From the NCBI GenBank assembly GCA_046563655.1, contig CM102283.1, forward strand, positions 4,464,001-4,528,000: 64,000 nt of DNA. Reading direction: 5' to 3'. Numbering within the stretch: position 1 is the first letter of the stretch; each line of letters starts with the position of its first letter. The DNA is from Yuukianura sp. NJ FZ-2021 (lineage: Eukaryota). Below the pieces are notes generated by a model that was not told where the DNA came from, searched no databases, and saw nothing but the letters and a program-made list of their open reading frames with translations. The translations under genes were made by a program, and so were the position numbers. Shown piece by piece: positions 33,332-64,000 of this stretch.

Positions 33332-33787
33332 TTTTTTTTTTTTTTTTTTTTTTGAACGGGTACGAGATGTAGCACCCCCTAAAGCGGGGCCTTACACTAC
33401 TTCGCGTTGAGTTGTCTTGCTATCTTTCCATTCGGCTAGAGAAGGTAACTCTAGGTATTAGGAAAACCACATCGGAAAAACGCTAATACAAAGTTGATAA
33501 GCAAGACAACTCGGGGACGTTACTTTACAGTTACGTTACATATACTGATGAGAAAGGCAGGTCCTCTGCTTGTTTTTACGGTGAGTTTACAGCTCACCAA
33601 CCTCAAGGAAACAGACTCATCAGCATCTCAGAATGAAATTGAAAGGGAATAAGGAAATGGCAAATTCCTTATGCACATAGGCAAATTTTCATTCACTTTT
33701 TTTATTGCGAGTGACCGACAGGATTCGATCTCACAGACAGGCAGTTGGCAGAATAGAGACTCATACCACTGCGCTATCATGGCTCGC
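33332..33787 (-). mobile_element. tRNA-derived SINE with poly(A) tail inserted in the satellite T-tract
   Basis: Minus-strand head has A box TAGCGCAGTGG (33766-33776), B box GATCGAATCC (33721-33730) and a CTGCCAA anticodon-like loop (Gly GCC). The 22-T run at 33332-33353 is the tail plus target T-tract. Satellite resumes in register at the T-tract from 33788. Confidence 0.88.
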
Positions 33788-36700
33788 TTTTTTTTCAAAA
33801 TTTCTGAGTGCGACCACTAAATTCTAAGGCTATACAGACACATTTCATTCCATTCTAAAGCTATTATACAATGGTGTTTGATATGCCGCTTTTTAGTTTA
33901 GGAACAGTTTCGCCTGTGTTTTAAGTTGAAATTATATATGCTTTGGAACAGCTATTTTATTAAAACCCGCTTGCATTTGGACAAAGAGTAAAGCGGATTT
34001 TTTTCCAAAATTTCTGAGTGCGACCACTAGATTCTAAGGCTATACAGACACATCTAAGTCCATTCTAACGGTATTGTACAATGGTGTTTGATATGCCGCC
34101 TTCTATTTTAGGAATAGTTTCGCCTGTGTTTTAAGTTGAAATTAGATATGCTTTGGAACAGCTATTTTATTAAAACCCGCTTGCATTTGGACAAAGAGTA
34201 AAGCGGATTTTTTCCCAAAATTTCTGAGTGCGACCACTAGATTCTAAGGCTATACAGACACATCTAAGTCCATTCTAACGGTATTGTACAATGGTGTTTG
34301 ATATGCCGCCTTCTATTTTAGGAATAGTTTCGCCTGTGTTTTAAGTTGAAATTAGATATGCTTTGGAACAGCTATTTTATTAAAACCCGCTTGCATTTGG
34401 ACAAAGAGTAAAGCGGATTTTTTTCCAAAATTTCTGAGTGCGACCACTAGATTCTAAGGCTATACAGACACATCTAAGTCCATTCTAACGGTATTGTACA
34501 ATGGTGTTTGATATGCCGCCTTCTATTTTAGGAATAGTTTCGCCTGTGTTTTAAGTTGAAATTAGATATGCTTTGGAACAGCTATTTTATTAAAACCCGC
34601 TTGCATTTGGACAAAGAGTAAAGCGGATTTTTTTCCAAAATTTCTGAGTGCGACCACTAGATTCTAAGGCTATACAGACACATCTAAGTCCATTCTAACG
34701 GTATTGTACAATGGTGTTTGATATGCCGCCTTCTATTTTAGGAATAGTTTCGCTTGTGTTTTAAGTTGAAATTAGATATGCTTTGGAACAGCTATTTTAT
34801 TAAAACCCGCTTGCATTTGGACAAAGAGTAAAGCGGATTTTTTTCCAAAATTTCTGAGTGCGACCACTAGATTCTAAGGCTATACAGACACATCTAAGTC
34901 CATTCTAACGGTATTGTACAATGGTGTTTGATATGCCGCCTTCTATTTTAGGAATAGTTTCGCTTGTGTTTTAAGTTGAAATTAGATATGCTTTGGAACA
35001 GCTATTTTATTAAAACCCGCTTGCATTTGGACAAAGAGTAAAGCGGATTTTTTTCCAAAATTTCTGAGTGCGACCACTAGATTCTAAGGCTATACAGACA
35101 CATCTAATTCCATTCTAACGGTATTATACAATGGTGTTTGATATGCCGCCTTTTAGTTTAGGAACAGTTTCGCCTGTGTTTTAAGTTGAAATTATATATG
35201 CTTTGGAACAGCTATTTTATTAAAACCCGCTTGCATTTGGACAAAGAGTAAAGCGGATTTTTTCCCAAAATTTCTGAGTGCGACCACTAGATTCTAAGGC
35301 TATACAGACACATCTAAGTCCATTCTAACGGTATTGTACAATGGTGTTTGATATGCCGCCTTCTATTTTAGGAATAGTTTCGCCTGTGTTTTAAGTTGAA
35401 ATTAGATATGCTTTGGAACAGCTATTTTATTAAAACCCGCTTGCATTTGGACAAAGAGTAACGCGGGTTTTTTTCCAAAATTTCTGAGTGCGACCACTAG
35501 ATTCTAAGGCTATACAGACACATCTAATTCCATTCTAACGGTATTGTACAATGGTGTTTGATATGCCGCCTTCTATTTTAGGAATAGTTTCGCTTGTGTT
35601 TTAAGTTGAAATTAGATATGCTTTGGAACAGCTATTTTATTAAAACCCGCTTGCATTTGGACAAAGAGTAAAGCGGATTTTTTTTTCAAAATTTCTGAGT
35701 GCGACCACTAGATTCTAAGGCTATACAGACACATCTAAGTCCATTCTAACGGTATTGTACAATGGTGTTTGATATGCCGCCTTCTATTTTAGGAATAGTT
35801 TCGCTTGTGTTTTAAGTTGAAATTAGATATGCTTTGGAACAGCTATTTTATTAAAACCCGCTTGCATTTGGACAAAGAGTAAAGCGGATTTTTTTCCAAA
35901 ATTTCTGAGTGCGACCACTAGATTCTAAGGCTATACAGACACATCTAAGTCCATTCTAACGGTATTGTACAATGGTGTTTGATATGCCGCCTTCTATTTT
36001 AGGAATAGTTTCGCCTGTGTTTTAAGTTGAAGTTAGATATGCTTTGGAACAGCTATTTTATTAAAACCCGCTTGCATTTGGACAAAGAGTAAAGCGGATT
36101 TTTTTCCAAAATTTCTGAGTGCGACCACTAGATTCTAAGGCTATACAGACACATCTAAGTCCATTCTAACGGTATTGTACAATGGTGTTTGATATGCCGC
36201 CTTCTATTTTAGGAATAGTTTCGCTTGTGTTTTAAGTTGAAATTAGATATGCTTTGGAACAGCTATTTTATTAAAACCCGCTTGCATTTGGACAAAGAGT
36301 AAAGCGGATTTTTTTCCAAAATTTCTGAGTGCGACCACTAGATTCTAAGGCTATACAGACACATCTAAGTCCATTCTAACGGTATTGTACAATGGTGTTT
36401 GATATGCCGCCTTCTATTTTAGGAATAGTTTCGCTTGTGTTTTAAGTTGAAATTAGATATGCTTTGGAACAGCTATTTTATTAAAACCCGCTTGCATTTG
36501 GACAAAGAGTAAAGCGGATTTTTTTCCAAAATTTCTGAGTGCGACCACTAGATTCTAAGGCTATACAGACACATCTAAGTCCATTCTAACGGTATTGTAC
36601 AATGGTGTTTGATATGCCGCCTTCTATTTTAGGAATAGTTTCGCTTGTGTTTTAAGTTGAAATTAGATATGCTTTGGAACAGCTATTTTATTAAAACCCG

Positions 36701-39700: not shown

Positions 39701-41961
39701 CTAAATACTAAGGCTATACAGACACATCTCATTCCATTCTAACGCTATTATACAATGGTGTTTGATATGCCGCCTTCTATTTTAGGAATAGTTTCGCTTG
39801 TGTTTTAAGTTGAAATTAGATATGCTTTGCAACAGCTATTTTATTAAAACCCGCTTGCATTTGGACAACGAGTAAAGCGGATTTTTTTTTCAAAATTTCT
39901 GAGTGCGACCACTAAATACTAAGGCTATACAGACACATCTCATTCCATTCTAACGCTATTATACAATGGTGTTTGATATGTCGCCTTTTAGTTTAGGAAC
40001 AGTTTCGCCTGTGTTTTAAGTTGAAATTAGATATGCTTTGGAACAGCTATTTTATTAAAACCCGCTTGCATTTGGACAAAGAGTAACGCGGGTTTTTTTT
40101 CCAAAATTTCTGAGTGCGACCACTAAATACTAAGGCTATACAGACACATCTCATTCCATTCTAACGCTATTATACAATGGTGTTTGATATGCCGCCTTCT
40201 ATTTTAGGAATAGTTTCGCTTGTGTTTTAAGTTGAAATTAGATATGCTTTGCAACAGCTATTTTATTAAAACACGCTTGCATTTGGACAACGAGTAAAGC
40301 GGTTTTTTTTTCAAAATTTCTGAGTGCGACCACTAAATACTAAGGCTATACAGACACATCTCATTCCATTCTAACGCTATTATACAATGGTGTTTGATAT
40401 GTCGCCTTTTAGTTTCAGAACAGTTTCGCCTGTGTTTTAAGTTGAAATTAGATATGCTTTGGAACAGCTATTTTATTAAAACCCGCTTGCATTTGGACAA
40501 AGAGTAACGCGGGTTTTTTTTCCAAAATTTCTGAGTGCGACCACTAGATTCTAAGGCTATACAGACACAGCTAAGTCCATTCTAACGGTATTGTACAATG
40601 GTGTTTGATATGCCGCCTTCTATTTTAGGAATAGTTTCGCCTGTGTTTTTAAGTTGAAATTAGATATGCTTTGGAACAGCTATTTTATTAAAACCCGCTT
40701 GCATTTGGACAAAGAGTAAAGCGGATTTTTTTCCAAAATTTCTGAGTGCGACCACTAGATTCTAAGGCTATACAGACACATCTAAGTCCATTCTAACGGT
40801 ATTGTACAATGGTGTTTGATATGCCGCCTTCTATTTTAGGAATAGTTTCGCTTGTGTTTTAAGTTGAAATTAGATATGCTTTGGAACAGCTATTTTATTA
40901 AAACCCGCTTGCATTTGGACAAAGAGTAAAGCGGATTTTTTTCCAAAATTTCTGAGTGCGACCACTAGATTCTAAGGCTATACAGACACAGCTAAGTCCA
41001 TTCTAACGGTATTGTACAATGGTGTTTGATATGCCGCCTTCTATTTTAGGAATAGTTTCGCTTGTGTTTTAAGTTGAAATTAGATATGCTTTGAAACAGC
41101 TATTTTATTAAAACACGCTTGCATTTGGACAACGAGTAAAGCGGTTTTTTTTTCAAAATTTCTGAGTGCGACCACTAAATACTAAGGCTATACAGACACA
41201 TCTCATTCCATTCTAACGCTATTATACAATGGTGTTTGATATGCCGCCTTCTATTTTAGGAATAGTTTCGCTTGTGTTTTAAGTTGAAATTAGATATGCT
41301 TTGCAACAGCTATTTTATTAAAACACGCTTGCATTTGGACAACGAGTAAAGCGGTTTTTTTTCAAAATTTCTGAGTGCGACCACTAAATACTAAGGCTAT
41401 ACAGACACATCTCATTCCATTCTAACGCTATTATACAATGGTGTTTGATATGTCGCCTTTTAGTTTCAGAACAGTTTCGCCTGTGTTTTAAGTTGAAATT
41501 AGATATGCTTTGGAACAGCTATTTTATTAAAACCCGCTTGCATTTGGACAAAGAGTAACGCGGGTTTTTTTCCAAAATTTCTGAGTGCGACCACTAGATT
41601 CTAAGGCTATACAGACACATCTAAGTCCATTCTAACGGTATTGTACAGTGGTGTTTGATATGCCGCCTTCTATTTTAGGAATAGTTTCGCCTGTGTTTTT
41701 AGTTGAAGTTAGATATGCTTTGGAACAGCTATTTTATTAAAACCCGCTTGCATTTGGACAAAGAGTAAAGCGGATTTTTTTCCAAAATTCCTGAGTGCGA
41801 CCACTAGATTCTAAGGCTATACAGACACATCTAAGTCCATTCTAACGGTATTGTACAATGGTGTTTGATATGCCGCCTTCTATTTTAGGAATAGTTTCGC
41901 TTGTGTTTTAAGTTGAAATTAGATATGCTTTGGAACAGCTATTTTATTAAAACCCGCTTGC
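33788..41961. repeat. 210-bp satellite, segment 2 (~39 copies)
   Basis: Same monomer and orientation; includes runs of apparently identical copies. Confidence 0.99.
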
Positions 41962-42320
41962 GAATCACGGCTCTTTCAGTCTTCCTCCTTTGGAAAGAAT
42001 CATGTACAATTAAACTTTAACTTAATTAATCGCGATCAACAACAATCTATCACAACCGACGTTACTCCACCACCTCACAGTGAGGAACGTACAACACAAA
42101 TCTGTGCCATATCAACGGAAACTGGACGAATTCACCGATTAAGCTAACTCACATTTGGGATATATGGTATAGCTATTGCATGCCTATATCTATATCCCAG
42201 TCCAAGCAATTCGAGAACCAACAAAGTTAAGTTACAAAAATCCTAAAATCAGAGATTAGAACCGATTACTACTAAATCTCTACATTTTCAGCAAACACTT
42301 GTCATTGCCAGTGCCAAAAA

Positions 42321-43163
42321 ATGCCGGTAGAAAGGTCTCCAGGAAAAGAAATTGGAACGCCCACACAAGGCACATTCCGACAATCGATATTGAATTTCGA
42401 GGGAACCCCGAAACGTCCCGATGGCAGCGGAAAAAGACCGCTAGTAGACACTGACGCACTCACCCCGCACAAATCACAACGTATCGCTCCAGTATACGAC
42501 GAAAAATTTGTCGAACTAATCGTCACGAAGCTCAACACACAAATGGAGGCACAGATGAAGGCCCATACGTCCGAAATTCTAAACAATCAAAAGGAACTTG
42601 TTGCGAGCGTGCAAGCGGAAATCTCGTCAGTCAAAGCAAATGTACAGAACCTCACGTCTCTCGTTGAAGCACTACAACACGACAATTATACCTTGAACTC
42701 CCGAGTCAGTACGAACGAAGACCAACTCTCTGCACTTAAAAATGACGTCTCAAATCTCCAAAGCGCAACACGATCTCTCCAAATTACCGCAGCTCACGCC
42801 GTTGCGGAAGCCAGGAAGAATAATCTCATTTTCCAAGGTATCGCTGAAGGTCCTCAAGACACTATCGAAGCCCAGGTTCTGCATTACATTCAAGTTACAC
42901 TGAACCAGAAATCAATAACTCCATTACAAATTCGTAAATTGGGGAGAACTAACCCAGACGCCGGTAGGCCCAGACCCACATCGGTACTCTTCAAGGACTT
43001 CGCTCAGAGGGACACTGTTTTTGCCTCCGCCAGACAGTTCAGACACCCCACTATCGCCGTCTACAGTGACAGGCCAAAAATACTCCGAGATGAAGCTAAA
43101 AAAAGGCGAGAAGAGAACTCTGGACGTCACATAAATCCGATACCTCCAGATAGATCACAATGA
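42321..43163 (+). CDS. LINE ORF1 protein (coiled coil plus RRM-like nucleic-acid chaperone), 280 aa
   Basis: Heptad-rich centre followed by RKNNLIFQGIAE...RKLGR...PRPTSVLF...VYSDRP, typical of L1/CR1-type ORF1. Confidence 0.9.
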   Translation: MPVERSPGKEIGTPTQGTFRQSILNFEGTPKRPDGSGKRPLVDTDALTPHKSQRIAPVYDEKFVELIVTKLNTQMEAQMKAHTSEILNNQKELVASVQAEISSVKANVQNLTSLVEALQHDNYTLNSRVSTNEDQLSALKNDVSNLQSATRSLQITAAHAVAEARKNNLIFQGIAEGPQDTIEAQVLHYIQVTLNQKSITPLQIRKLGRTNPDAGRPRPTSVLFKDFAQRDTVFASARQFRHPTIAVYSDRPKILRDEAKKRREENSGRHINPIPPDRSQ

Positions 43164-46100
43164 CAATCAATTTCCCCACATTTACGCTACGCAGTCCCAG
43201 TTTCACTACTTTACTACAATGTATCAGGTTTAGTTAACAAAAGTCTCGATTTTTACACTAATTTGATAAATATTAAACCAGTAATCTTTTGCCTGTCGGA
43301 GACTATGTCTTCTAGCCAATCTCCTTACCACAGAATACTAGCTGAAAACTACAATTTGGTAGTGGTTCCGGGCTACCGACCAAAACGTGGAAGACCATCA
43401 GGTGGACTTGTACTTGGATGGGAAAAAACACTGCATGGTATAGGTGTATCAGAAATTAATCATACGGAATATTATATTTTAGTTAGGCTAACAACACAAA
43501 CTATCACGTTCTTACTAGTATTTTTTTATTTATCTCCAGACAGTACACACTCGGTTAAGTTAACATCGCTATTTGAAGAGATCACTCATCATCGGGCACA
43601 CTATGACAAAATCATTTTAATGGGGGACGCCAACGCATGGACTGGTGAACTAAACACAGAGTTAGGGGCAGCACGGTGTAGCAAAGACGCACGAATAAAC
43701 GCCAAAGGAAAACAACTGCTCAAAGCAGCGGAAGAGTGCGGTTTTCAAATTGGAAATGGGGCATTGGCGGGAGATCTAGACGGAGAAATAACCTATACAA
43801 GCCGTACAGGCAACAAATGCGGCAGCAGCGTCATCGATCTCCTTCTATACACGCTACCAGCATCTATGTTCATCAGCTCCTTCAGAGTATTAGACTTCCC
43901 ACACTCGTCTCACTTCCCGATCCTAGCCGAACTCAACATCTCCAGACAACAAACTCTACAGAGAAATCTGACCGGAAGAATTATCACACCATCAAATCCC
44001 AGCCAATTGTTCAGTCTCAAAGAACAATTAAACTCAGCAATATGTAAAATAGTACCCACGGACGACGTTAACCAATTCTCCACTGCGATCGACAACAGCG
44101 TAAAGACTACCTGTAAATCCCTAGGGCTACTGAAGTGCTCCAGAAGGCAAACCACAAACATATCACTACCAAAATGGTTCGACGCGGAGTGCAAAAGCAT
44201 GAAGCACAAAGTCCTCAAGCAGCTCAGACACTACCGAAGAATTGAACCATACAAAAGCAGAAAAAAAGGCGAAGCTTTGGAAAACTACATCAATATAAAT
44301 TCCGAATACAAATCTCTCTGCAAATCGAAAGCCGAACTAGCACGCAGTGTAAAAGAGAAATCCCTGCACAACTCTCACAGACCGACAGAGTTTTGGAACG
44401 CCGTCAAGTCACTCCGCCAGCACCGAAGAAAGCCAAACTCCAGTATCACACAAACAGAATGGCAAAACCACTTCGGGAAGGTATACAATCCCACGTGCCA
44501 AAAACAATCTTCTTCACCCAACATCGAATACGACAACCCACATGGGAAAGACCCAATCCTAGATCCGGACTTCAACATGTTTGAACTCAAACTAGCCTTG
44601 AAAAGACTCAAAAACGCAAAGGCCCCAGGTCCAGATCTCATCCCTAATGAAATCTGGAAGCTTTTGTCAGGTCCGGCCCTAGAAAAAATTCTAAATCTGT
44701 TCCAAAACGTGTACAACTCAGGAATCGTCCCGCACGCATGGTCACAATCCAACGTGATTCCAGTTCACAAGAAAGGATGCCACGACGATCCCAGCAACTA
44801 CCGCCCTATCTCCCTACTCAGTACACTGCTAAAACTTTTCACGACGATCCTGGTGTCCAGATTTAATTCATGGATTAAAAAAAACAACAAGCTCTCGAAA
44901 TTCCAAGCAGGGTTTCAACGTGGAAAGAGCACCCTCGACCACATCTTCGTACTAAACTCCCTAATTCAGAAGCAATTCAAAAAGAACAAAAAACTCTACG
45001 TATGCTTCGTCGACTTGAGACAAGCATTCGACAGCCCAAACCACGGCTTACTATGGAGGTGCCTGGTAAACGAGAAAGTACCAAACAGATTTATCAAGGT
45101 ATTCAAAAGTCTATACGACCAAGCCGCCGCTCGTATCCTCACGGACGATGGGCAGACCGAAGAAATCAACATAGCGAGGGGAGTACTACAAGGCGAGTCA
45201 GCTAGTCCGGCACTTTTCAATATTTTCATGGAAGGGCTCTCTAAAATATACGAACGAACGTTCATCGCCGGTGTCAACCTCTCAAACACAACTATACACC
45301 ACTTGCTCTACGCAGATGACCTCGCCATCATAGCCCCTTCCGCGCATGCACTCCAAGAAAAGATTACTCTGGCATCCAACTTTTTCCAATCTCGCGCACT
45401 AGAAGTCAACTTATCCAAAACGCAAGTAGTAATATTCAGTAAATCAGGTCGCTCTTGCAAGACTGACAAGTTCACTTGGAGAAGGACGGCACTAAAAATA
45501 GTGAAACAATACACATACTTGGGAATTACTTTCACTTCGAACGGGAAATTCCAGACGCATGCTGGACTAGCAGTGACAAAAGGACACTCGGCAGGAGCCT
45601 CCGTCATTGCAGTTCTAAAGTTTCCTAGAATCTTCTCCCTGAGCTCATCCAAGTCGCTTCTCTCCTCCATACTACTACCGAACACACTGTACGCCGCAGG
45701 AATATGGGGGCTGACCCACGCCGAACAATTAGAGTCCACACAACAGAGGTTCTTAAAGAAACTAATTGGCCTTCCACGTAACACGCCAAAATACTTCGTT
45801 AGACTCGAAACAGGAATTCACCACGTCTCACTTACGGTGGCTAAGTTAGGGTACTTGTTCTGGACAAGAATACTTCGGGCGCAAGAAGGATCCCTAATAA
45901 AAGAAGCGTACCATGAGTTGAGAAAGGCGACAGCGTCCCCCATTTCAACAAACGAATGGAACTGGTGTGCCCAGATGAGTGAGATCTTCAAGTCGCTAGG
46001 ACTGAGCAGTATTTGGCAAGCAAATAATTATAATTTAGCAATAAGATCTTATAACAATTTTTTGTATCAACTCAGGGAGAAACTAGGCAAAGCCGACATG

Positions 46101-46511
46101 GCGTCAGTGGAACGATCCTACACAATGACGCACTACAAGTCCCTTCTTGGCTCGGACTTCACTGAAAAATTCTACTTCAAGGCCAACTTTCCCAGCTACG
46201 CCATTACGCGAATCGCCCAAATCCGTCTACAACGCAACAACGTCTTAAATCGGAGGACCTGGGTCAACCTGGGGGATTTTGTCGATCTACCCTGCAAATA
46301 CTGTGGTGAAACACTCTCCTTACGTCACGCGATGGTTATCTGCCCGCAACAAAACGAACCCAGAAAAACGTTCGCCAAACATCTAGATACATTACACCCC
46401 GCCACGAACTTTGAAAAACAACTGGAAAATATTGCATCTTCTCCCCACCCTCTTGAAACTTACAAAGCGCTCCACATATTCATGTGCAACATTTTGTCAA
46501 ATTACAATTAA
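43164..46511 (+). CDS. LINE ORF2: APE endonuclease, reverse transcriptase and C-terminal Cys/His motif; no AUG before the endonuclease
   Basis: Frame is open from 43164 (track starts at TTG 43263). APE motifs YYNVSGL, LSET, GDANA, VIDL, SSHFP. RT motifs KAPGPD, NYRPISLL, QAGF, FVDLRQAFD, GVLQG, YADD. C-terminal CKYC..H..ICP. Confidence 0.95.
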   Translation, partial: QSISPHLRYAVPVSLLYYNVSGLVNKSLDFYTNLINIKPVIFCLSETMSSSQSPYHRILAENYNLVVVPGYRPKRGRPSGGLVLGWEKTLHGIGVSEINHTEYYILVRLTTQTITFLLVFFYLSPDSTHSVKLTSLFEEITHHRAHYDKIILMGDANAWTGELNTELGAARCSKDARINAKGKQLLKAAEECGFQIGNGALAGDLDGEITYTSRTGNKCGSSVIDLLLYTLPASMFISSFRVLDFPHSSHFPILAELNISRQQTLQRNLTGRIITPSNPSQLFSLKEQLNSAICKIVPTDDVNQFSTAIDNSVKTTCKSLGLLKCSRRQTTNISLPKWFDAECKSMKHKVLKQLRHYRRIEPYKSRKKGEALENYININSEYKSLCKSKAELARSVKEKSLHNSHRPTEFWNAVKSLRQHRRKPNSSITQTEWQNHFGKVYNPTCQKQSSSPNIEYDNPHGKDPILDPDFNMFELKLALKRLKNAKAPGPDLIPNEIWKLLSGPALEKILNLFQNVYNSGIVPHAWSQSNVIPVHKKGCHDDPSNYRPISLLSTLLKLFTTILVSRFNSWIKKNNKLSKFQAGFQRGKSTLDHIFVLNSLIQKQFKKNKKLYVCFVDLRQAFDSPNHGLLWRCLVNEKVPNRFIKVFKSLYDQAAARILTDDGQTEEINIARGVLQGESASPALFNIFMEGLSKIYERTFIAGVNLSNTTIHHLLYADDLAIIAPSAHALQEKITLASNFFQSRALEVNLSKTQVVIFSKSGRSCKTDKFTWRRTALKIVKQYTYLGITFTSNGKFQTHAGLAVTKGHSAGASVIAVLKFPRIFSLSSSKSLLSSILLPNTLYAAGIWGLTHAEQLESTQQRFLKKLIGLPRNTPKYFVRLETGIHHVSLTVAKLGYLFWTRILRAQEGSLIKEAYHELRKATASPISTNEWNWCAQMSEIFKSLGLSSIWQANNYNLAIRSYNNFLYQLREKLGKADMASVERSYTMTHYKSLLGSDFTEKFYFKANFPSYAITRIAQIRLQRNNVLNRRTWVNLGDFVDLPCKYCGETLSLRHAMVICPQQNEPRKTFAKHLDTLHPATNFEKQLENIASSPHPLETYKALHIFMCNILSNYN

Positions 46512-46718
46512 GTATAGTTAATAGTATAGTTAAGCATAGTTAAGTATAAGTAGAGAAAGTAGAATAGATCGTTAGGTAATCATAAGGATAAACGAAAGTA
46601 ATCATATAACACAAAGAATAATACATAAGAAATCAAAAAGTGCCTTTAAAAAATAGCAAACTTGTTGATCAGGGTGTATCACCGAAAGTCAATAAATAAT
46701 CAATCAATCAAAAAAAAA

Positions 46719-49700
46719 ATTAAAACCCGCTTGCATTTGGACAAAGAGTAAAGCGGATTTTTTTCCAAAATTTCTGAGTGCGACCACTAGATTCTAAGGC
46801 GATACAGACACAGCTAAGTCCATTCTAACGGTATTGTACAATGGTGTTTGATATGCCGCCTTCTATTTTAGGAATAGTTTCGCTTGTGTTTTAAGTTGAA
46901 ATTAGATATGCTTTGGAACAGCTATTTTATTAAAACCCGCTTGCATTTGGACAAAAAGTAAAGCGGATTTTTTTCCAAAATTTCTGAGTGCGACCACTAG
47001 ATTCTAAGGCTATACAGACACAGCTAAGTCCATTCTAACGGTATTGTACAATGGTGTTTGATATGCCGCCTTCTATTTTAGGAATAGTTTCGCTTGTGTT
47101 TTAAGTTGAAATTAGATATGCTTTGGAACAGCTATTTTATTAAAACCCGCTTGCATTTGGACAAAGAGTAAAGCGGATTTTTTTCCAAAATTTCTGAGTG
47201 CGACCACTAGATTCTAAGGCTATACAGACACAGCTAAGTCCATTCTAACGGTATTGTACAATGGTGTTTGATAGGTGTTTGATATGCCGCCTTCTATTTT
47301 AGGAATAGTTTCGCTTGTGTTTTAAGTTGAAATTAGATATGCTTTGGAACAGCTATTTTATTAAAACCCGCTTGCATTTGGACAAAAAGTAAAGCGGATT
47401 TTTTTCCAAAATTTCTGAGTGCGACCACTAGATTCTAAGGCTATACAGACACAGCTAAGTCCATTCTAACGGTATTGTACAATGGTGTTTGATATGCCGC
47501 CTTCTATTTTAGGAATAGTTTCGCTTGTGTTTTAAGTTGAAATTAGATATGCTTTGGAACAGCTATTTTATTAAAACCCGCTTGCATTTGGACAAAGAGT
47601 AAAGCGGATTTTTTTCCAAAATTTCTGAGTGCGACCACTAGATTCTAAGGCTATACAGACACATCTAAGTCCATTCTAACGGTATTGTACAATGGTGTTT
47701 GATATGCCGCCTTCTATTTTAGGAATAGTTTCGCTTGTGTTTTAAGTTGAAATTAGATATGCTTTGGAACAGCTATTTTATTAAAACCCGCTTGCATTTG
47801 GACAAAAAGTAAAGCGGATTTTTTTCCAAAATTTCTGAGTGCGACCACTAGATTCTAAGGCTATACAGACACAGCTAAGTCCATTCTAACGCTATTATAC
47901 AATGGTGTTTGATATGCCGCCTTTTAGTTTCAGAGCAGTTTCGCCTGTGTTTTAAGTTGAAATTAGATATGCTTTGGAACAGCTATTTTATTAAAACCCG
48001 CTTGCATTTGGACAAAGAGTAAAGCGGATTTTTTTCCAAAATTTCTGAGTGCGACCACTAGATTCTAAGGCTATACAGACACAGCTAAGTCCATTCTAAC
48101 GGTATTGTACAATGGTGTTTGATATGCCGCCTTCTATTTTAGGAATAGTTTCGCTTGTGTTTTAAGTTGAAATTAGATATGCTTTGGAACAGCTATTTTA
48201 TTAAAACCCGCTTGCATTTGGACAAAGAGTAAAGCGGATTTTTTTTCAAAATTTCTGAGTGCGACCACTAGATTCTAAGGCTATACAGACACATCTAAGT
48301 CCATTCTAACGGTATTGTACAATGGTGTTTGATATGCCGCCTTCTATTTTAGGAATAGTTTCGCCTGTGTTTTTAGTTGAAGTTAGATATGCTTTGGAAC
48401 AGCTATTTTATTAAAACCCGCTTGCATTTGGACAAAGAGTAAAGCGGATTTTTTTTCAAAATTTCTGAGTGCGACCACTAGATTCTAAGGCTATACAGAC
48501 ACATCTAATTTCATTCTAACGGTATTGTACAATGGTGTTTGATATGTCGCCTTTTAGTTTAGGAACAGTTTCGCTTGTGTTTTAAGTTGAAATTAGATAT
48601 GCTTTGGAACAGCTATTTTATTAAAACCCGCTTGCATTTGGACAAAGAGTAAAGCGGATTTTTTTTTCAAAATTTCTGAGTGCGACCACTAGATTCTAAG
48701 GCTATACAGACACATCTAAGTCCATTCTAACGGTATTGTACAATGGTGTTTGATATGCCGCCTTCTATTTTAGGAATAGTTTCGCCTGTGTTTTTAGTTG
48801 AAGTTAGATATGCTTTGGAACAGCTATTTTATTAAAACCCGCTTGCATTTGGACAAAGAGTAAAGCGGATTTTTTTCCAAAATTTCTGAGTGCGACCACT
48901 AGATTCTAAGGCTATACAGACACATCTAATTCCATTCTAACGGTATTGTACAATGGTGTTTGATATGCCGCCTTCTATTTTAGGAATAGTTTCGCTTGTG
49001 TTTTAAGTTGAAATTAGATATGCTTTGCAACAGCTATTTTATTAAAACCCGCTTGCATTTGGACAACGAGTAAAGCGGATTTTTTTTCAAAATTTCTGTG
49101 TGCGACCACTAAATACTAAGGCTATACAGACACATCTCATTCCATTCTAACGCTATTATACAATAGTGTTTGATATGTCGCCTTCTATTTTAGGAATAGT
49201 TTCGCTTGTGTTTTAAGTTGAAATTAGATATGCTTTGGAACAGCTATTTTATTAAAACCCGCTTGCATTTGGACAATGAGTAAAGCGGATTTTTTTTCAA
49301 AATTTCTGAGTGCGACCACTAAATTCTAAGGCTATACAGACACATCTCATTCCATTCTAAAGCTATTATACAATGGTGTTTGATATGCCGCTTTTTAGTT
49401 TAGGAACAGTTTCGCCTGTGTTTTAAGTTGAAATTATATATGCTTTGGAACAGCTATTTTATTAAAACCCGCTTGCATTTGGACAAAGAGTAAAGCGGAT
49501 TTTTTCCCAAAATTTCTGAGTGCGACCACTAGATTCTAAGGCTATACAGACACATCTAAGTCCATTCTAACGGTATTGTACAATGGTGTTTGATATGCCG
49601 CCTTCTATTTTAGGAATAGTTTCGCTTGTGTTTTAAGTTGAAATTAGATATGCTTTGGAACAGCTATTTTATTAAAACCCGCTTGCATTTGGACAAAGAG

Positions 49701-51862
49701 TAAAGCGGATTGTTTTTCAAAATTTCTGAGTGCGACCACTAGATTCTAAGGCTATACAGACACATCTAATTCCATTCTAACGGTATTGTACAATGGTGTT
49801 TGATATGCCGCCTTCTATTTTAGGAATAGTTTCGCTTGTGTTTTAAGTTGAAATTAGATATGCTTTGCAACAGCTATTTTATTAAAACCCGCTTGCATTT
49901 GGACAACGAGTAAAGCGGATTTTTTTTCAAAATTTCTGAGTGCGACCACTAAATACTAAGGCTATACAGACACATCTCATTCCATTCTAACGCTATTATA
50001 CAATGGTGTTTGATGTGTCGCCTTCTATTTTAGGAATAGTTTCGCTTGTGTTTTAAGTTGAAATTAGATATGCTTTGGAACAGCTATTTTATTAAAACCC
50101 GCTTGCATTTGGACAAAGAGTAAAGCGGATTTTTTTCCAAAATTTCTGAGTGCGACCACTAGATTCTAAGGCTATACAGACACATCTAAGTCCATTCTAA
50201 CGGTATTGTACAATGGTGTTTGATATGCCGCCTTCTATTTTAGGAATAGTTTCGCTTGTGTTTTAAGTTGAAATTAGATATGCTTTGGAACAGCTATTTT
50301 ATTAAAACCCGCTTGCATTTGGACAAAGAGTAAAGCGGATTTATTTTCAAAATTTCTGAGTGCGACCACTAGATTCTAAGGCTATACAGACACATCTAAT
50401 TCCATTCTAACGGTATTGTACAATGGTGTTTGATATGCCGCCTTCTATTTTAGGAATAGTTTCGCTTGTGTTTTAAGTTGAAATTAGATATGCTTTGCAA
50501 CAGCTATTTTATTAAAACCCGCTTGCATTTGGACAACGAGTAAAGCGGATTTTTTTTTTCAAAATTTCTGAGTGCGACCACTAAATACTAAGGCTATACA
50601 GACACATCTCATTCCATTCTAACGCTATTATACAATGGTGTTTGATATGTCGCCTTCTATTTTAGGAATAGTTTCGCTTGTGTTTTAAGTTGAAATTAGA
50701 TATGCTTTGGAACAGCTATTTTATTAAAACCCGCTTGCATTTGGACAAAGAGTAAAGCGGATTTTTTTCCAAAATTTCTGAGTGCGACCACTAGATTCTA
50801 AGGCTATACAGACACATCTAAGTCCATTCTAACGGTATTGTACAATGGTGTTTGATATGCCGCCTTCTATTTTAGGAATAGTTTCGCTTGTGTTTTAAGT
50901 TGAAATTAGATATGCTTTGGAACAGCTATTTTATTAAAACCCGCTTGCATTTGGACAAAGAGTAAAGCGGATTTTTTTTTCAAAATTTCTGAGTGCGACC
51001 ACTAGATTCTAAGGCTATACAGACACATCTAATTCCATTCTAACGGTATTGTACAATGGTGTTTGATATGCCGCCTTCTATTTTAGGAATAGTTTCGCTT
51101 GTGTTTTAAGTTGAAATTAGATATGCTTTGCAACAGCTATTTTATTAAAACCCGCTTGCATTTGGACAACGAGTAAAGCGGATTTTTTTTCAAAATTTCT
51201 GAGTGCGACCACTAAATACTAAGGCTATACAGACACATCTCATTCCATTCTAACGCTATTATACAATGGTGTTTGATACGTCGCCTTCTATTTTAGGAAT
51301 AGTTTCGCTTGTGTTTTAAGTTGAAATTAGATATGCTTTGCAACAGCTATTTTATTAAAACACGCTTGCATTTGGACAACGAGTAAAGCGGTTTTTTTTT
51401 CAAAATTTCTGAGTGCGACCACTAAATACTAAGGCTATACAGACACATTCCATTCCATTCTAACGCTATTATACAATGGTGTTTGATATGTCGCCTTTTA
51501 GTTTAGGAACAGTTTCGCCTGTGTTTTAAGTTGAAATTATATATGCTTTGGAACAGCTATTTTATTAAAACCCGCTTGCATTTGGACAAAGAGTAACGCG
51601 GTTTTTTTCCAAAATTTCTGAGTGCGATCACTAGATTCTAAGGCTATACAGACACATCTAATTCCATTCTAACGGTATTGTACAATGGTGTTTGATATGC
51701 CGCATTCTATTTTAGGAATAGTTTCGCTTGTGTTTTAAGTTGAAATTAGATATGCTTTGCAACAGCTATTTTATTATAACACGCTTGCATTTGGACAACG
51801 AGTAAAGCGGTTTTTTTTTCAAAATTTCTGAGTGCGACCACTAAATACTAAGGCTATACAGA
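46719..51862. repeat. 210-bp satellite, segment 3 (~24 copies, more diverged edge of array)
   Basis: Same monomer; ends abruptly at ...AGGCTATACAGA (51862). Confidence 0.99.
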
Positions 51863-55515: not shown

Positions 55516-55547
55516 GTTTTTTGGATTTTTGGCAAAAGTGATTTGTT

Positions 55548-58500
55548 GTGCCACCACCGTACTTCGAATTACTCAAGATGAGCACCGAAGAGGAAGTGAT
55601 GGTGGATCCTGATATCCCTTACGAACACGCTGTTTTTGGACTTGAACAGTTCAAAATCAGCGCCAAAAAGTTTGCTGACACGGTTGACCCTCAAAAGTGG
55701 TCAAAGTTCAACAGCCTCGAGGTCACCGTGAAGGAAGGCAAACTAACCAAAATGGAAACCCAACTGGAGTTTTGGCGGGAAAAAATCATCCTCGCTTGTT
55801 CGGTGGTGAAAGACTCTCACCAAGTTCTCCAGACCCACCAAGTGACCCTTGACCTTTGCGAAAATCTCCTGGAAAAGTGTCAGTTACAAATCCTTCGTGC
55901 ACGTGAGTTGTGCAACGAAAGGAAGAAATCAACCACCAATACAAATCAAGATTCCGAGGAACTTCCGGACGGCTCCGATTTTAAGTTGGAGCGTACCAAA
56001 CCACCAACTTTCTCCGGAAACTACTCGGAATGGCCCCACTTTGCCGATCTGTTCAAAGCAGCAGTAATCGACAACAAGAAAATATCAGGTGCGTCTAAAT
56101 TAATGTACTTAAAAAATTCACTCATAGGAGAAGCAGCATCCATCGCAGCATCGTTTCCGCCCACAAACCTCAGTTTTCAAGAAGCTTGGGCGTTGGTCGA
56201 GAAGCGATACAACAAAAAGCGAGAAATCGCTTTCTCTCATCTCCAAAAGCTCTTCTCTCTACAGACAGTCTCTGACACGACTTCCGGCTTACGGAAGGTC
56301 ATTGACCTTGTCAACCAAACATCAATTTCGCTCAAGCAGATGGGACTGGCCGTGGACCAATGGGACGTTTTCATCGTCTACTGGGTCCAAACAAAGTTAG
56401 ATCCGGAAACCCGAAAACAGTGGCTACTCTCAGAAGGCGACGACCTCCCTGTTCTTGCGGAATTCCTGGAATTCCTTGAACGCAGATCCAGTGCACTGTC
56501 AGAGCCAACAAAACATTCCAAGGTCAAACCACCCACCACATCTTCCTCTACGCACCACGTCAATGCCACCCAGAGCAAACAACAACCGCTACCAGCCAAA
56601 TGTCCAAAGTGTTCATCTGACCATCGTCTATTCCATTGCCCAGAATTTCAAGGTCTTCCGCTCAATGACAAATGGTCACTCGTGCACAAATGCAAATTGT
56701 GCAACTTGTGCCTTCGTCATGGACATTCCACTGCAGATTGTTTTTACAAAACTTTCTGCAGACACTGCAACAAAAAACACCATCCATCACTACACAAGTT
56801 CGACTCCAAGGACTCCACGTCCTCTAAGCCTGACTCCCACCAGAGTCAAGGTCACTCAAACTCAAAGTCACAGGAAAGCCAGTCTGCTCCATCCACCAGT
56901 GCCACTAAATCAGCCCCACCAAATGACGTCACATCACATCACTCTACAGCTCCGTTCTCCAAGGACAGTGTTGTGCTTATGGCCACTTTAATAGTGAATG
57001 TGCTGGACGCCAATGGTACTCTCCAACCATGCCGAGTGTTTCTGGACCCTGGTTCGGACACAAATTTTGTATCCGAAAATTTCATGTCACGGTTGGGATT
57101 ACCCAGACAACACTCATGTGTAAACATAACTGGTATTGGTGGTTCCAAAAGTGACTTTTCTCGTGGACTAGTGTCTTTCATTGCCCACTCCACCTCCACC
57201 ACATTTTCACTTCCAGTGAAAGCACTTGTTCTGCCTAAGTTGACGGGTCACCTTCCCCGGGAAAAGTGCCAGGTCAACTTTCCTCATCTAGAGGGTCTCA
57301 CCCTCTCCGATCCGATCTTTCACTCTCCCGCTCACGTGGACATTCTCTTCGGAGCGGAAGTGGAAGCACTTATCAAACTTCCGGGACTTCGCAGAGGACT
57401 CCCGGGTACACCAATTGCCCAAAATACCAAATTCGGTTGGTATTTGAGTGGAAGTGCTCCCACACAAGTGTCAGTTTCCAATTTTTTTGCCTCTTCATTC
57501 CATTCCACTTGTTCAGTCAACGACCAGTGCCTGGAATCGTCACTCCAAAAATTTTGGGAATTGGAAGAACCAACTCCCACTTCCTCAAATCTCACTTCCA
57601 GTGACCAACAGTGTGAAGATCACTTTCTCTCCACTTTCACTCGCGACTCCGAAGGTCGCTACGAGGTCAATCTCCCGTTTTCCACTAATGCTGGGGTTCT
57701 GGGGGAATCTCGCCACAAAGCAGTTTCCTGCTTCCGCTCACTGGAGAGACAACTGGAAAAGGATCCAGCTCTCCAGGAAAACTACCATTCCCAAATTGAG
57801 AATTTTATTTTCAATAAATGGGTTGAAGTAGTTCCACAACTCCAATCCACCGAAAAAGTGAAAGTGACAAATGTGTCTAAAGCCGAGTGCACACTTAACC
57901 CCTATTACATACCACATCACGTGGTAGTGAAACCCGAAAATACCACCACCAAAGTGCGTATTGTGTTCAACGCTTCTGCGAAGACCACTTCCGGTGAAAG
58001 TTTGAACTCTCTCCTCCTCCCTGGACCAAAGATCCAAACCGATCTGCATCCACTCCTCACTCGGTTTCGATCCCACCAAATTGCATTATCTGCGGATATT
58101 GTCAAATTCTATCATCAAGTGAAAGTGCATCCAGACCATTCGGACTTTCAACGCTTCGTTTGGAGAAAGTCCCCGGATCACACTTTCACCGACCTCCGGT
58201 TTAACCGTGTTATTTTTGGCGTAACTTCGGCTCCGTTTTTGGCGATCCGAGTTTTACGCCAACTGGGGGAAGAGGCTAAAGCCGAATTCCCACTCGCCCA
58301 TGCAGCCATCACCAGCGACTTCCTCGTCGACAACTTGCTTTCCGGTGCAACGACGATGGAAGAAGCAATGGAACTGAAGTCCCAAGTGACAACAGTTCTC
58401 AACCAAGGAAAGTTTCCACTTCAAAAATGGTGTTCTAACCACCCGGAAGTGTTAAGCACCATTCCCACCTCCGAGCGGGAAACTTTTTCCCTCAACATCC

Positions 58501-62057: not shown

Positions 62058-62812
62058 TATAAAGAGGTATCCATAGTCTTTGGACATGCAATTTTTGTAC
62101 GCATTCTCCATCGTTGTATTTTTCTTTCCGCCATTCATTTGACGCCCCAGGCAAGCGACAAACTGAGAGTCTCGAGGGTTCTTCATTAGAACCAAGTAAT
62201 GGCAGTTGGCAGTAATTTCCTTCAAGTTCTTGTGAAAAAGTTTTGCACAAGAATAATGAGTGATACATTGCGGTGGTGAGATGTTCTAGTGAACGCAGTG
62301 CCAACTTCGGATTTCTTTCCAACTTCATGCATTAAATCATGCAGCACTACAAGGGACGGTTTATCAGATCCGTCATGCCATTTATCCAGTAGCCCGTGGT
62401 GAAACTTTATTTGAGGCATGGCACATTTTAGTTGTGTAAACAACTCTGGCTGTAACTCTGTATAGCAGTATGTAACACGATTGAACTTTTCCCCAGTAGA
62501 CGTCAGAATGATCTCGTTCCGACGAAGGATGATTTCCTTAACCAGAGTACTTTTTCCGCTTTGAGTCATCCCGCTGATGCACATCGTAAAAGGAGCACGT
62601 AAATGAGCATCAAATGTTGCCCCGGACAACTCGTCCATAAACAGCGACCCTTTGCCATGCTCTTCCGATACATATTCGGCAGGAGTCAAGTGATAAGCAA
62701 TGTTGTTGTTAACAGGAATGGGGACTTGCATAGTCTTGCATGTCAATTTGTGACGTTTAAAGTTATCCGACCGTCCAAACTTTTTTGAACAACCTGAACA
62801 ACTGTATTCCAT
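62058..62812 (-). pseudogene. 5' part of Polinton-type A32/FtsK-like DNA packaging ATPase with N-terminal C2H2-like zinc finger; frameshifted
   Basis: CSGCSKKFGRSDNFKRHKLTC; Walker A GMTQSGKST; Walker B LVVLHDLM (D>H); FTRTSHHRNVSLIILVQN. After a 1-nt frameshift near 62235-62239 it continues ITANCHYLVLMKNPRD...LGRQ...YGYLFI. Confidence 0.88.
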
Positions 62813-63049
62813 TTTTATATTCACTACGGCAAGGTGTTTACGCTCTGTGAATTCGTTGTAACTTTTGTGATTTCCACTCAGCGAGAAGAAGAGAGATTCA
62901 AAGAGAATATATCTTGTCCGCTTCTGATCTGTGACTAAATGAATTCTCTATCAGCGTGTAGGACTTATACTCCTCCTCATCTTACTTTTCAGACAGCCGA
63001 AAAGCGTGCTTCTACTCCTCACTCCTCTTCCTCCTCCTCTCCTCCTCCT

Positions 63050-63410
63050 CAAATAGCTCAAGAGCATGCCTATACTCCTCCTCCTCAGATATCTCAAGAG
63101 CATGCCTATACTCCTCCTCCTCAGATAGCTCAAGAGCATGCCTATACTCCTCCTCCTCAGATAGCTCAAGAGCATGCCTATACTCCTCCTCCTCCTCCTC
63201 AGATATCTCAAGAGCATGCCTATACTCCTCCTCCTCCCCTCCTCAGATACCTGAAGAGCATGCCTATACTCCTCCTCCTCCCCTCCTCAGATACCTGAAG
63301 AGCATGCCGATACTCCTCCTCCTCCCATCCTCAGATACTTTAAGAGCATACCTATACTCCTCCTCCTCCCCTCCTCAGATATCTCAAGAGCATGCCTATA
63401 CCCCTCCTCC
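63050..63410. repeat. Minisatellite, 36-43-bp unit CAGATATCTCAAGAGCATGCCTATACT(CCT)n, about 9 copies
   Basis: Directly visible; unit length varies with the CCT tract. Confidence 0.92.
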
Positions 63411-64000
63411 TCGGCCGAAGAGCTTACCTATACTCCCCCTCCTCCTCCTCAGTCCACGCGCATGCCATCACCCATCACCTAACCTAACCTAGCCTAACCT
63501 TATGGCATCCTACTGGAATCATTTTATTTTAGTACACTGTACTTCAATCAACTACACTGGACTTTTCTAAAACTGCTTTGTAATTTCAATAAACTACACT
63601 GCACTTTTCTAAAACTGCTTTGTAATTTCAATCAACTACACCGGACTTTTCTAAACCTGCTTTGTAATTTCAATAAACTATGCTGGACTTTACTTAGTTT
63701 AGTTTTACTTACTTTACTTTAGTTTTAGAAAAGTCCAGTGTAGTTGATTGAAGTACAGTGTACTAAAATAAAATGATTCCAGTAGGATGCCATAAGGTTA
63801 GGCTAGGTTAGGTTAGGTGGTGGGTGATGGCATGCGCGTGGACTGAGGAGGAGGGGGGGGGAGTAAAGGTAAGCTCTTCGGCCGAGGAGGAGGGGTATAG
63901 GCATGCTCTTGAGATATCTGAGGAGGGGAGGAGGAGGAGTATAGGTATGCTCTTAAGGTATCTGAGGATGGGAGGAGGAGGAGTATCGGCATGCTCTTCA
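63296..64000. repeat. Long inverted repeat (arms 63296-63574 and 63721-64000, running off the window) with 146-bp spacer
   Basis: 63721-64000 is the reverse complement of 63296-63574 with a few substitutions and a small indel. Confidence 0.95.
63543..63691. repeat. 42-bp tandem repeat, about 3.5 copies, in the palindrome centre
   Basis: TTCAATCAACTACACTGGACTTTTCTAAAACTGCTTTGTAAT-like units at 63543, 63585, 63627 and 63669 (partial). Confidence 0.92.

Follow-up and report, generated by a model that had tools for sequence, protein, structure and literature searches.

An L1-like LINE with ORF1 and ORF2 in One Frame across a Single Stop Codon, a Candidate for UGA Readthrough

The analyzed stretch of DNA, called the window below, is 64,000 nucleotides (nt) long and comes from contig CM102283.1 of Yuukianura sp. 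NJ FZ-2021 (assembly GCA_046563655.1, positions 4,464,001 to 4,528,000 of the forward strand). A single full-length long interspersed nuclear element (LINE) lies on its + strand at 41962-46719 and interrupts an array of a 210-bp satellite. The two open reading frames (ORFs) of the element, ORF1 and ORF2, share one frame and are parted by a single TGA codon, an arrangement that recurs in its relatives. Context-driven readthrough of the ORF1 stop, yielding an ORF1-ORF2 fusion, is the best-supported mechanism for expression of ORF2, and it is proposed here with modest confidence from comparison of sequences.

Insertion and Limits of the Element

The limits of the insertion and the traces of its integration are as follows.

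41962-46719 (+): full-length LINE insertion with 5' untranslated region (5'UTR), ORF1, stop, ORF2, 3'UTR, and poly(A), delimited by the satellite on both sides, its protein content, and the A10 tail
41947-41961: target-site duplication, left copy, 15 nt, within the 210-bp satellite; the same 15 nt recur at 46720-46734
46720-46734: target-site duplication, right copy
46710-46719 (+): poly(A) tail of 10 A, the last of which could equally be part of the target site

This copy of the LINE looks recent and complete, as its ORFs are intact and both the 15-nt target-site duplication and the A10 tail are present. In public sequencing runs, a contig joint 41945->46719 was found at the insertion, with 16 letters fitting either side. 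The 64-kb window contains one copy of the LINE.

Coding Regions and the Junction

The coding features of the window copy, including those of the junction between ORF1 and ORF2, are listed below; ORF1p and ORF2p denote the proteins of the two ORFs.

42321-43160 (+): ORF1, 280 codons, with a coiled coil, an RNA-recognition motif (RRM)-like domain of the L1 ORF1p type, and a short proline- and basic-rich tail
43158-43169 (+): junction context CAA TGA CAA TCA (wider context tca caa TGA caa tca att)
43160-43237 (+): out-of-frame ATG overlapping the TGA (ATGA), 25 codons and then a stop
43161-43163 (+): sole in-frame TGA between ORF1 and ORF2
43164-46508 (+): ORF2 frame, 1115 codons, with AP-type endonuclease, reverse transcriptase (RT), and a C-terminal CCHC motif
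43164-43211 (+): post-stop linker of 16 codons with no ATG; the PF03372 match begins at ORF2 residue 17
43218-43220 (+): Asn19 of the endonuclease N-terminal motif; column N19 is invariant in 7/7 elements
43299-43301 (+): Glu46 of the L-S-E-T motif; column E46 is invariant in 7/7 elements
43305-43307 (+): first in-frame ATG of the ORF2 frame, codon 48, directly after L-S-E-T and downstream of Asn19 and Glu46
44763-45533 (+): RT domain, ORF2 residues 534-790
46293-46343 (+): C-terminal Cys-x2-Cys-x7-His-x4-Cys (C1044, C1047, H1055, and C1060); the four columns are invariant in 9/9 aligned sequences
46509-46511 (+): ORF2 terminator TAA

ORF1 starts with the ATG at 42321 and is closed by the TGA at 43161-43163, and ORF2 follows in the same frame from 43164 to 46508, with its end at the TAA at 46509-46511. 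Counted stop to stop from 42276, ORF1 through ORF2 make up 1411 codons with one in-frame stop. Re-reading of the sequence agrees in these respects with a preliminary description of the locus, which had placed both ORFs in one frame with a single TGA at 43161-43163, the motif YYNVSGL in the frame after the stop (it lies 16 codons downstream), the first in-frame ATG after LSET (codon 48, 43305), and an ATG at 43160 that is out of frame and stops after 25 codons. The length of 1396 aa given there for a fusion is also correct (280 + 1 + 1115 = 1396). By likeness to L1-EN and APE1, Asn19 is presumably a catalytic residue.

In Pfam, the RT of ORF2 was recognized as RVT_1 (E=3.5e-36; 125.3 bits, above the cut-off). 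Its endonuclease was matched by Exo_endo_phos_2 (E=1.1e-5, 25.7 bits) and Exo_endo_phos (E=9.8e-4, 19.4 bits), in both cases just under the curated cut-offs of 27.4 and 24.5, respectively. The best solved structure for the ORF2 family profile was human L1 ORF2p (8uw3, E=6e-44), matched in one stretch with part of the endonuclease and the RT. A single-sequence search of PDB with the endonuclease region alone gave no match, and the endonuclease profile found weak matches only (TRAS1 EN, E=0.021). The profile of seven ORF1s matched human LINE-1 ORF1p (2yko and 2ykp, E=1.6e-10) over the coiled coil, the RRM, and the start of the C-terminal domain (CTD); no curated Pfam family was matched by the window ORF1 alone. 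By these matches, the element is classified as an APE-type LINE with an L1-type (coiled coil and RRM) ORF1p. The solved RTs in PDB are of the L1 and R2 types only, so L1 as the best match does not assign the element to a clade.

Relatives and Conservation of the Shared Frame

Relatives of ORF2 were found in a protein search at 40-54% identity on metagenome contigs. The metagenome scan comprised 24 loci, and the junction counts, above and below, use seven elements with both ORF1 and the junction, namely the window copy, L001-L005, and L010. Loci L006-L009, which are broken or do not include the junction, and L011-L024, which are distant or partial, were left out of all counts. No relatives were found when viral contig and genome contig collections were scanned, and searches with ORF1 alone or with the ORF1 alignment gave no matches. 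The window copy and L001-L005 are 43-60% identical to each other in ORF2 and 24-27% identical to L010, and the median end branch in the tree of the elements is 0.6 changes per site.

The same layout was present in 6/6 relatives with a readable junction: a homologous ORF1, an ORF2 in the same frame, and exactly one stop between them. As the arrangement is repeated in every one of them, it is more than chance. The homology of ORF1 to that of the window copy is seen in the alignment, which contains the coiled coil, the NL..G.PE motif of the RRM, and KPDL...TR. In the window copy and L001-L005, the CTD of ORF1p appears cut short after KPDL...TR, with a tail rich in Pro, Thr, Gln, and Arg and of variable length instead; a longer CTD is kept in L010 and the distant relatives. 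Measured between stops, the upstream ORFs of the seven elements are 252-347 codons long, and in 7/7 a single in-frame stop is present across 917-1445 codons.

The linker around the stop is of low complexity and unalignable, with 21-82 codons from the last ORF1 anchor to the stop and 18-26 codons from the stop to the endonuclease Asn in all seven elements. Because the lengths differ, many insertions and deletions (indels) must have occurred, yet the two ORFs stayed in frame with each other and no further stop arose. In 7/7 elements, each of the other two frames is closed within 8-38 codons of the junction, so that ORF2 can be entered only in frame 0. A start-like codon touching the stop is AUG in four elements, GUG in two, and AUA in one, and its frame closes after 8-34 codons; in the ORF2 frame, no start codon overlaps or abuts the stop in any of the seven. 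There is no usable ORF2 AUG in 6/7 elements, where the first in-frame AUG comes at codons 48-57, downstream of both invariant endonuclease residues (Asn and Glu). L002 is the sole element with an earlier Met in ORF2, at codon 21.

The preliminary description had asked whether related copies would have a sense codon at the junction or an indel that puts the overlapping ATG in the ORF2 frame. Neither was found, as all seven elements have one in-frame stop there and no relative has such an indel. On this comparison, the in-frame stop is a family trait and not a private mutation.

Proteins related to ORF2 were also searched with a hidden Markov model of ORF1, and an ORF1-like domain was recognized in 0 of the first 79 and in 5 of all 227 (P0148, P0108, P0153, P0104, and P0082). 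A clean natural ORF1-ORF2 fusion was found in none of the 227 proteins, the sequences having been inspected for four of the five with an ORF1-like domain (all except P0082). P0148 and P0104, which both skip the N-terminus of the endonuclease, and P0153, whose N-terminal region is unrelated, have the appearance of composite gene models and were rejected as natural fusions. Locus L014 was rejected as well; it is a single ORF of 1412 codons, but with a repetitive N-terminus that is not ORF1-like. In P0104 and P0108, which are distant relatives of ORF2 (32-35% identity), 2A-like motifs ...E.NPGP stand upstream of the ORF1-like domain, and more distant members of the group may, judging from these motifs, use StopGo recoding at the N-terminus of ORF1. 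The NPGP motifs also call for caution in assigning the element to the L1 clade, as its clade may lie elsewhere.

Other Copies and Selection on ORF2

The element was found in five public runs, four of them from one sample of one organism and the fifth from a second organism and study, and four runs were compared. The assembly may have been built from the runs of the first organism, which therefore cannot count as independent. The comparison covers contigs only, and the differences listed are complete for X1 record 4 (3/3) and X3 record 18 (0 differences), while they make up 7 of 8 for X2 record 11 and 13 of 55 for X5 record 27, with 64 rows overall outside those listed. The contigs bridge 43161-43163 in all four runs, and no change at the stop is among the differences listed.

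When the near-identical copy in the run of the second organism is set against the window copy, 26/35 of the coding differences listed are synonymous and 9/35 are not; within ORF2, the numbers are 24 and 8. The excess of synonymous differences means that ORF2 is under purifying selection while the lineage carries the stop, and purifying selection in turn implies that ORF2 is translated somehow. The same counts speak against an ORF2 that is untranslated, with the stop marking ORF1-only or dead copies mobilized in trans by relatives or, in the simplest case, a private nonsense mutation. Because the window holds one copy and the differences are partly listed, rare sister copies with a sense codon could be present, but the stop occurs in 7/7 elements from at least two data sources, the ORF2 frames are otherwise unbroken, and the 227 proteins include no clean natural fusion. 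An untranslated ORF2 is the least probable of all explanations considered, and very improbable in itself.

Other copies with different flanks were recognized as loose contig ends at 42003 and 46708-46710, so the element is multicopy and not specific for the satellite. Upstream of 42003, the contigs of other copies (in X1, X2, and X5) no longer match the window copy, and the first 41 nt of the window copy (41962-42002) may be copy-specific, either as a variable 5' end or as a 5' addition. One X5 contig represents a copy without 125 nt of the LINE 5'UTR (42165->42291), a segment bounded by GT..AG. This copy may have arisen by retrotransposition of a spliced transcript or by plain deletion.

Stop Codon Identity, Context, and RNA Structure

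The stop at the junction is TGA in 6/7 elements, TAG in 1/7 (L010, UAG-G), and TAA in 0/7. Readable terminators of ORF2 (n=5) are UAA in four cases and UGA in one (L002), a usage that differs from that of the junction stops (Fisher p=0.010). UGA is followed by C in 5/6, where the background frequency of C at codon position 1 is 0.243 (binomial p=0.004). The codon before the stop is AAA in three elements, AAG in two, CAA in one, and GAA in one, i.e., a codon for Lys, Gln, or Glu (VAR) in 7/7, with a background of 0.181 and p of about 6e-6 if the elements are independent. This pattern of context is meaningful because the flanking linker is otherwise unconserved.

The hexanucleotides that begin with the stop are UGACAA in the window copy, UGACAC in L001, UGACGC in L002, UGAUAC in L003, UGACUC in L004, and UGACUA in L005. 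In the available part of a 2026 review (PMC13517186), UGA-CUA and UGA-CGG define type II readthrough, and UGACGC and UGACUC are variants found in alphaviruses and dicistro-like viruses. L005 (UGACUA), L004 (UGACUC), and L002 (UGACGC) match these type II motifs or viral variants; the window copy, L001, and L003 do not.

The preliminary description had taken the junction for a tobamovirus-type signal, and this part of it found no support as a trait of the family. The window copy resembles the type I signal of tobamoviruses (UAG-CAA-UUA) in the CAA before the stop and the CAA-UCA after it, which matches CAR-YYA, but its stop is UGA and not UAG. CAR-YYA occurs after the stop in the window copy only (1/7); it is absent from 6/6 relatives and is therefore not the conserved signal of the family.

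RNA structure at the junction was assessed from z-scores of the minimum free energy in the seven elements. For the 120 nt after the stop, the values were +0.92, +1.81, +1.54, -0.17, +0.91, -0.09, and +0.65, and for 150 nt centered near the stop, they were +1.23, -0.07, +0.69, +0.66, -0.83, +0.73, and +0.86. In the whole window, Rfam at gathering thresholds recognized no family and no selenocysteine insertion sequence (SECIS). ARAGORN found no tRNA.

The 24 nt directly after the stop are 19/24 identical between L001 (1013-1036) and L003 (1417-1440), with 7/8 of the third positions identical, and this stretch ranks 53 of 1320 windows; the ORF2 proteins of the two elements are 49% identical. A conserved nucleotide block after the stop is absent from the other four pairs with placeable stops. 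The L001/L003 block may be a lineage-specific nucleotide signal, a hint that was chosen after the fact.

Apart from readthrough, the stop could be removed or redefined by selenocysteine insertion, by adenosine-to-inosine (A-to-I) editing to a Trp codon, by a host code in which UGA is a sense codon, or by splicing. Taken together, these routes seem improbable. A single A-to-I edit would make UGA or UAG, but not UAA, UGG-like, and this matches the 6/1/0 usage of stops at the junction. The stop, however, is not within a stable duplex, and ADAR enzymes disfavor a 5' G neighbor, as the A of UGA has, which also counts against editing. Against selenocysteine stands the lack of a SECIS by Rfam in the whole window. 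A reassigned code is disfavored because UGA occurs once in the 1411 codons of the LINE and never inside a BEL/Pao ORF of 1831 codons in the same window, and it terminates ORF2 of L002. For splicing, the X5 copy without 125 nt bounded by GT..AG is a possible example, but the missing segment is in the 5'UTR (42165->42291) and not at the junction, and no contig joint spans the junction.

Expression of ORF2

The preliminary description had put forward leaky-stop readthrough. The architecture, conserved in 7/7 elements, and the leaky-stop context are in agreement with it; the mechanism itself stands only as an inference from them. According to this proposal, the element would be an intact L1-like LINE of young age, and in its clade a single leaky stop would separate two ORFs that are kept in a common frame. 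Most ribosomes would stop at the UGA and release ORF1p, an RNA-binding coiled-coil protein. In a small fraction of cases, a near-cognate tRNA would decode UGA, and the product would be an ORF1p-ORF2p fusion of 1396 residues with endonuclease and RT, which would then be the active enzyme. The signal would be the local context (a Lys, Gln, or Glu codon, UGA, and C) and not a downstream RNA structure. In this way, one mRNA would supply the two proteins at a high ORF1p:ORF2p ratio determined by the stop, just as UAG readthrough governs Gag and Gag-Pol in gammaretroviruses. Via the coiled coil that it shares with ORF1p, the fusion could enter ORF1p assemblies on the RNA that encodes it.

A broader form of the proposal concerns the whole group. 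A whole ancient clade of animal L1-like LINEs would make endonuclease and RT only as an ORF1p-ORF2p fusion via context-driven readthrough of UGA (rarely UAG), a retrovirus-like Gag/Gag-Pol strategy that would have arisen independently. The coiled coil of ORF1p would hold the fusion on the RNA that encodes it, and this would be a physical basis for cis-preference. The chances that this broader form is right or wrong are judged about even.

The main rival is termination-dependent, AUG-independent reinitiation, in which unrecycled ribosomes would resume translation a few codons past the UGA and make free ORF2p. The available parts of the cited papers state that translation of ORF2 depends on translation of ORF1 in L1 and SART1 and that the ORF2 AUG of L1 is not needed (PMC5009743, PMC5972666, and PMC2881922), and the ORF1p found here is L1-type. 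Such reinitiation makes no demand on the relative frame, yet frame 0 is retained in 7/7 elements despite their deep divergence, without a spacer and with only one stop. The near-constant distance of 18-26 codons between the stop and the endonuclease Asn is what would be expected if the N-terminus of ORF2p were set there. Near-cognate codons are also present in the post-stop linkers, though their position is not conserved, and the single start-like codon in contact with the stop belongs to a frame that is closed again after 8-34 codons. For SART1, the available text of PMC5972666 makes coupling dependent on a downstream structure, and none was detectable at this junction. Moreover, the bias to UGA-C without UAA is a signature of weak termination, which is not known to be needed for reinitiation. 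On this balance, reinitiation is considered rather unlikely, though far from negligible.

Several points nevertheless weigh against readthrough. The position of the stop, 18-26 codons before the endonuclease Asn, fits equally an ORF2p whose N-terminus starts near the stop, and as human L1 ORF2 is AUG-independent according to the literature available, the missing AUG alone does not demand readthrough. No stimulatory RNA structure was detected in the seven elements in either of the two stretches folded (z -0.83 to +1.81; pseudoknots are outside the fold model), so that readthrough would rest on context alone and might be as low as ~1% or less. A structure of this kind is required at type III and some type II sites, though not at every readthrough site. 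The p-values given above treat related elements as independent, so they overstate the significance, for which they give no more than an upper bound. A single metagenome is the source of five of the six relatives, and a functional ORF1p-ORF2p fusion was not found in the literature for any LINE.

Comparison with Known Systems

Readthrough as proposed here resembles most directly the Gag-Pol of murine leukemia virus (MuLV). In the available parts of PMC5009743 and PMC13517186, MuLV likewise has a gene for a nucleic-acid-binding structural protein and an RT gene in one frame with one stop between them, and in the LINE, as in MuLV, the enzyme would be part of a minor readthrough product that determines the stoichiometry. 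MuLV, as these texts present it, uses UAG-G with an H-type pseudoknot, whereas the LINE family has UGA-C in 5/7 elements, UAG-G in L010 only, and no detected structure. LINEs also differ in their replication, which proceeds by target-primed reverse transcription, and in having no protease to cleave the enzyme off the fusion.

Type II opal readthrough of alphavirus nsP3/nsP4 and of the dicistrovirus type shares with the LINE the UGA-C, a polymerase downstream of the stop, and the hexanucleotides of L005, L004, and L002 (PMC13517186, available part). These are, however, RNA viruses, often with an extended stem-loop downstream.

Among LINEs, L1 and SART1 are similar in having an L1-type ORF1p and an ORF2p with APE and RT on one mRNA, and in the available accounts of them ORF2 is expected to need the ribosomes that translate ORF1. 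For human L1, those accounts describe a 63-nt spacer ahead of an ORF2 with its own AUG; the present element has no spacer and no usable AUG. SART1 of Bombyx has an overlapping UAAUG in the ORF2 frame and needs downstream structure (PMC5972666, available part), whereas a conserved common frame and no detected structure are found here. Precedents for recoding in LINEs are 2A StopGo, in trypanosome L1Tc and in sea urchin, and frameshifting in HeT-A (PMC5972666 and PMC5009743, as far as available), but these are different events at other positions, and there is no 2A motif at this junction.

The available parts of reviews name as routes of non-LTR elements (those without long terminal repeats, LTRs) reinitiation or coupling (L1 and SART1), 2A StopGo, and HeT-A frameshifting (PMC2881922, PMC5972666, and PMC5009743). 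No readthrough was found described for ORF2 of a LINE in the literature within reach; older subscription papers on plant, fish, and insect LINEs lie outside it, and a prior mention there is possible. Some older plant or fish LINE papers may mention in-frame stops, and McMillan and Singer in 1993 reportedly discussed in-frame ORFs of human L1 and rejected a fusion.

Other Features of the Window

The satellite with the 210-bp unit occupies 1-41961 and 46719-51862, about 47 kb, and is very homogeneous, with 199 and 24 copies, respectively, and 95-96% matches. In the runs, the depth of satellite contigs is several hundred times that of the LINE. A second insertion in the satellite, about 450 bp long, lies at 33339-33788 (- strand); it splits the T-run of the satellite and has a long T-run at its left end. 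It looks like a short non-autonomous retroposon with poly(A) on the - strand; ARAGORN found no tRNA in it, and its 3' end is without obvious likeness to the 3' end of the LINE.

The BEL/Pao ORF mentioned above, at 55542-61037 (+), belongs to an LTR retrotransposon and is unbroken over its 1831 codons, with Peptidase_A17 (E=1.2e-49), DUF1759, DUF5641, and an integrase zinc domain; its presence suggests that the host is an animal. An ORF of 241 codons at 62222-62947 (-) encodes a C2H2 finger and a P-loop region, with weak likeness to the poxvirus A32 packaging ATPase (E=7e-4, below the Pfam cut-off), and may from this content be a remnant of the Polinton/Maverick type. Proline-rich tandem repeats of 36-132 bp lie beside it at 63039-63430.

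Meaning for LINE Biology

A long-standing problem is how ORF2 of LINEs is translated from a bicistronic mRNA and how ORF2p is kept at low levels while staying attached to the RNA that encodes it. The cases studied, L1 and SART1, use reinitiation that is poorly understood, and a clade with both ORFs in one frame across a leaky stop would be a simple alternative. For annotation, pipelines that demand an ATG-initiated ORF2 would call such active elements defective. If the proposed readthrough is true, these junctions would be compact natural UGA-C readthrough cassettes without RNA structure. The efficiency of readthrough would then set the stoichiometry of the two proteins, co-assembly of the fusion with ORF1p would explain cis-preference, and the Gag/Gag-Pol logic of retroviruses would extend to non-LTR elements.

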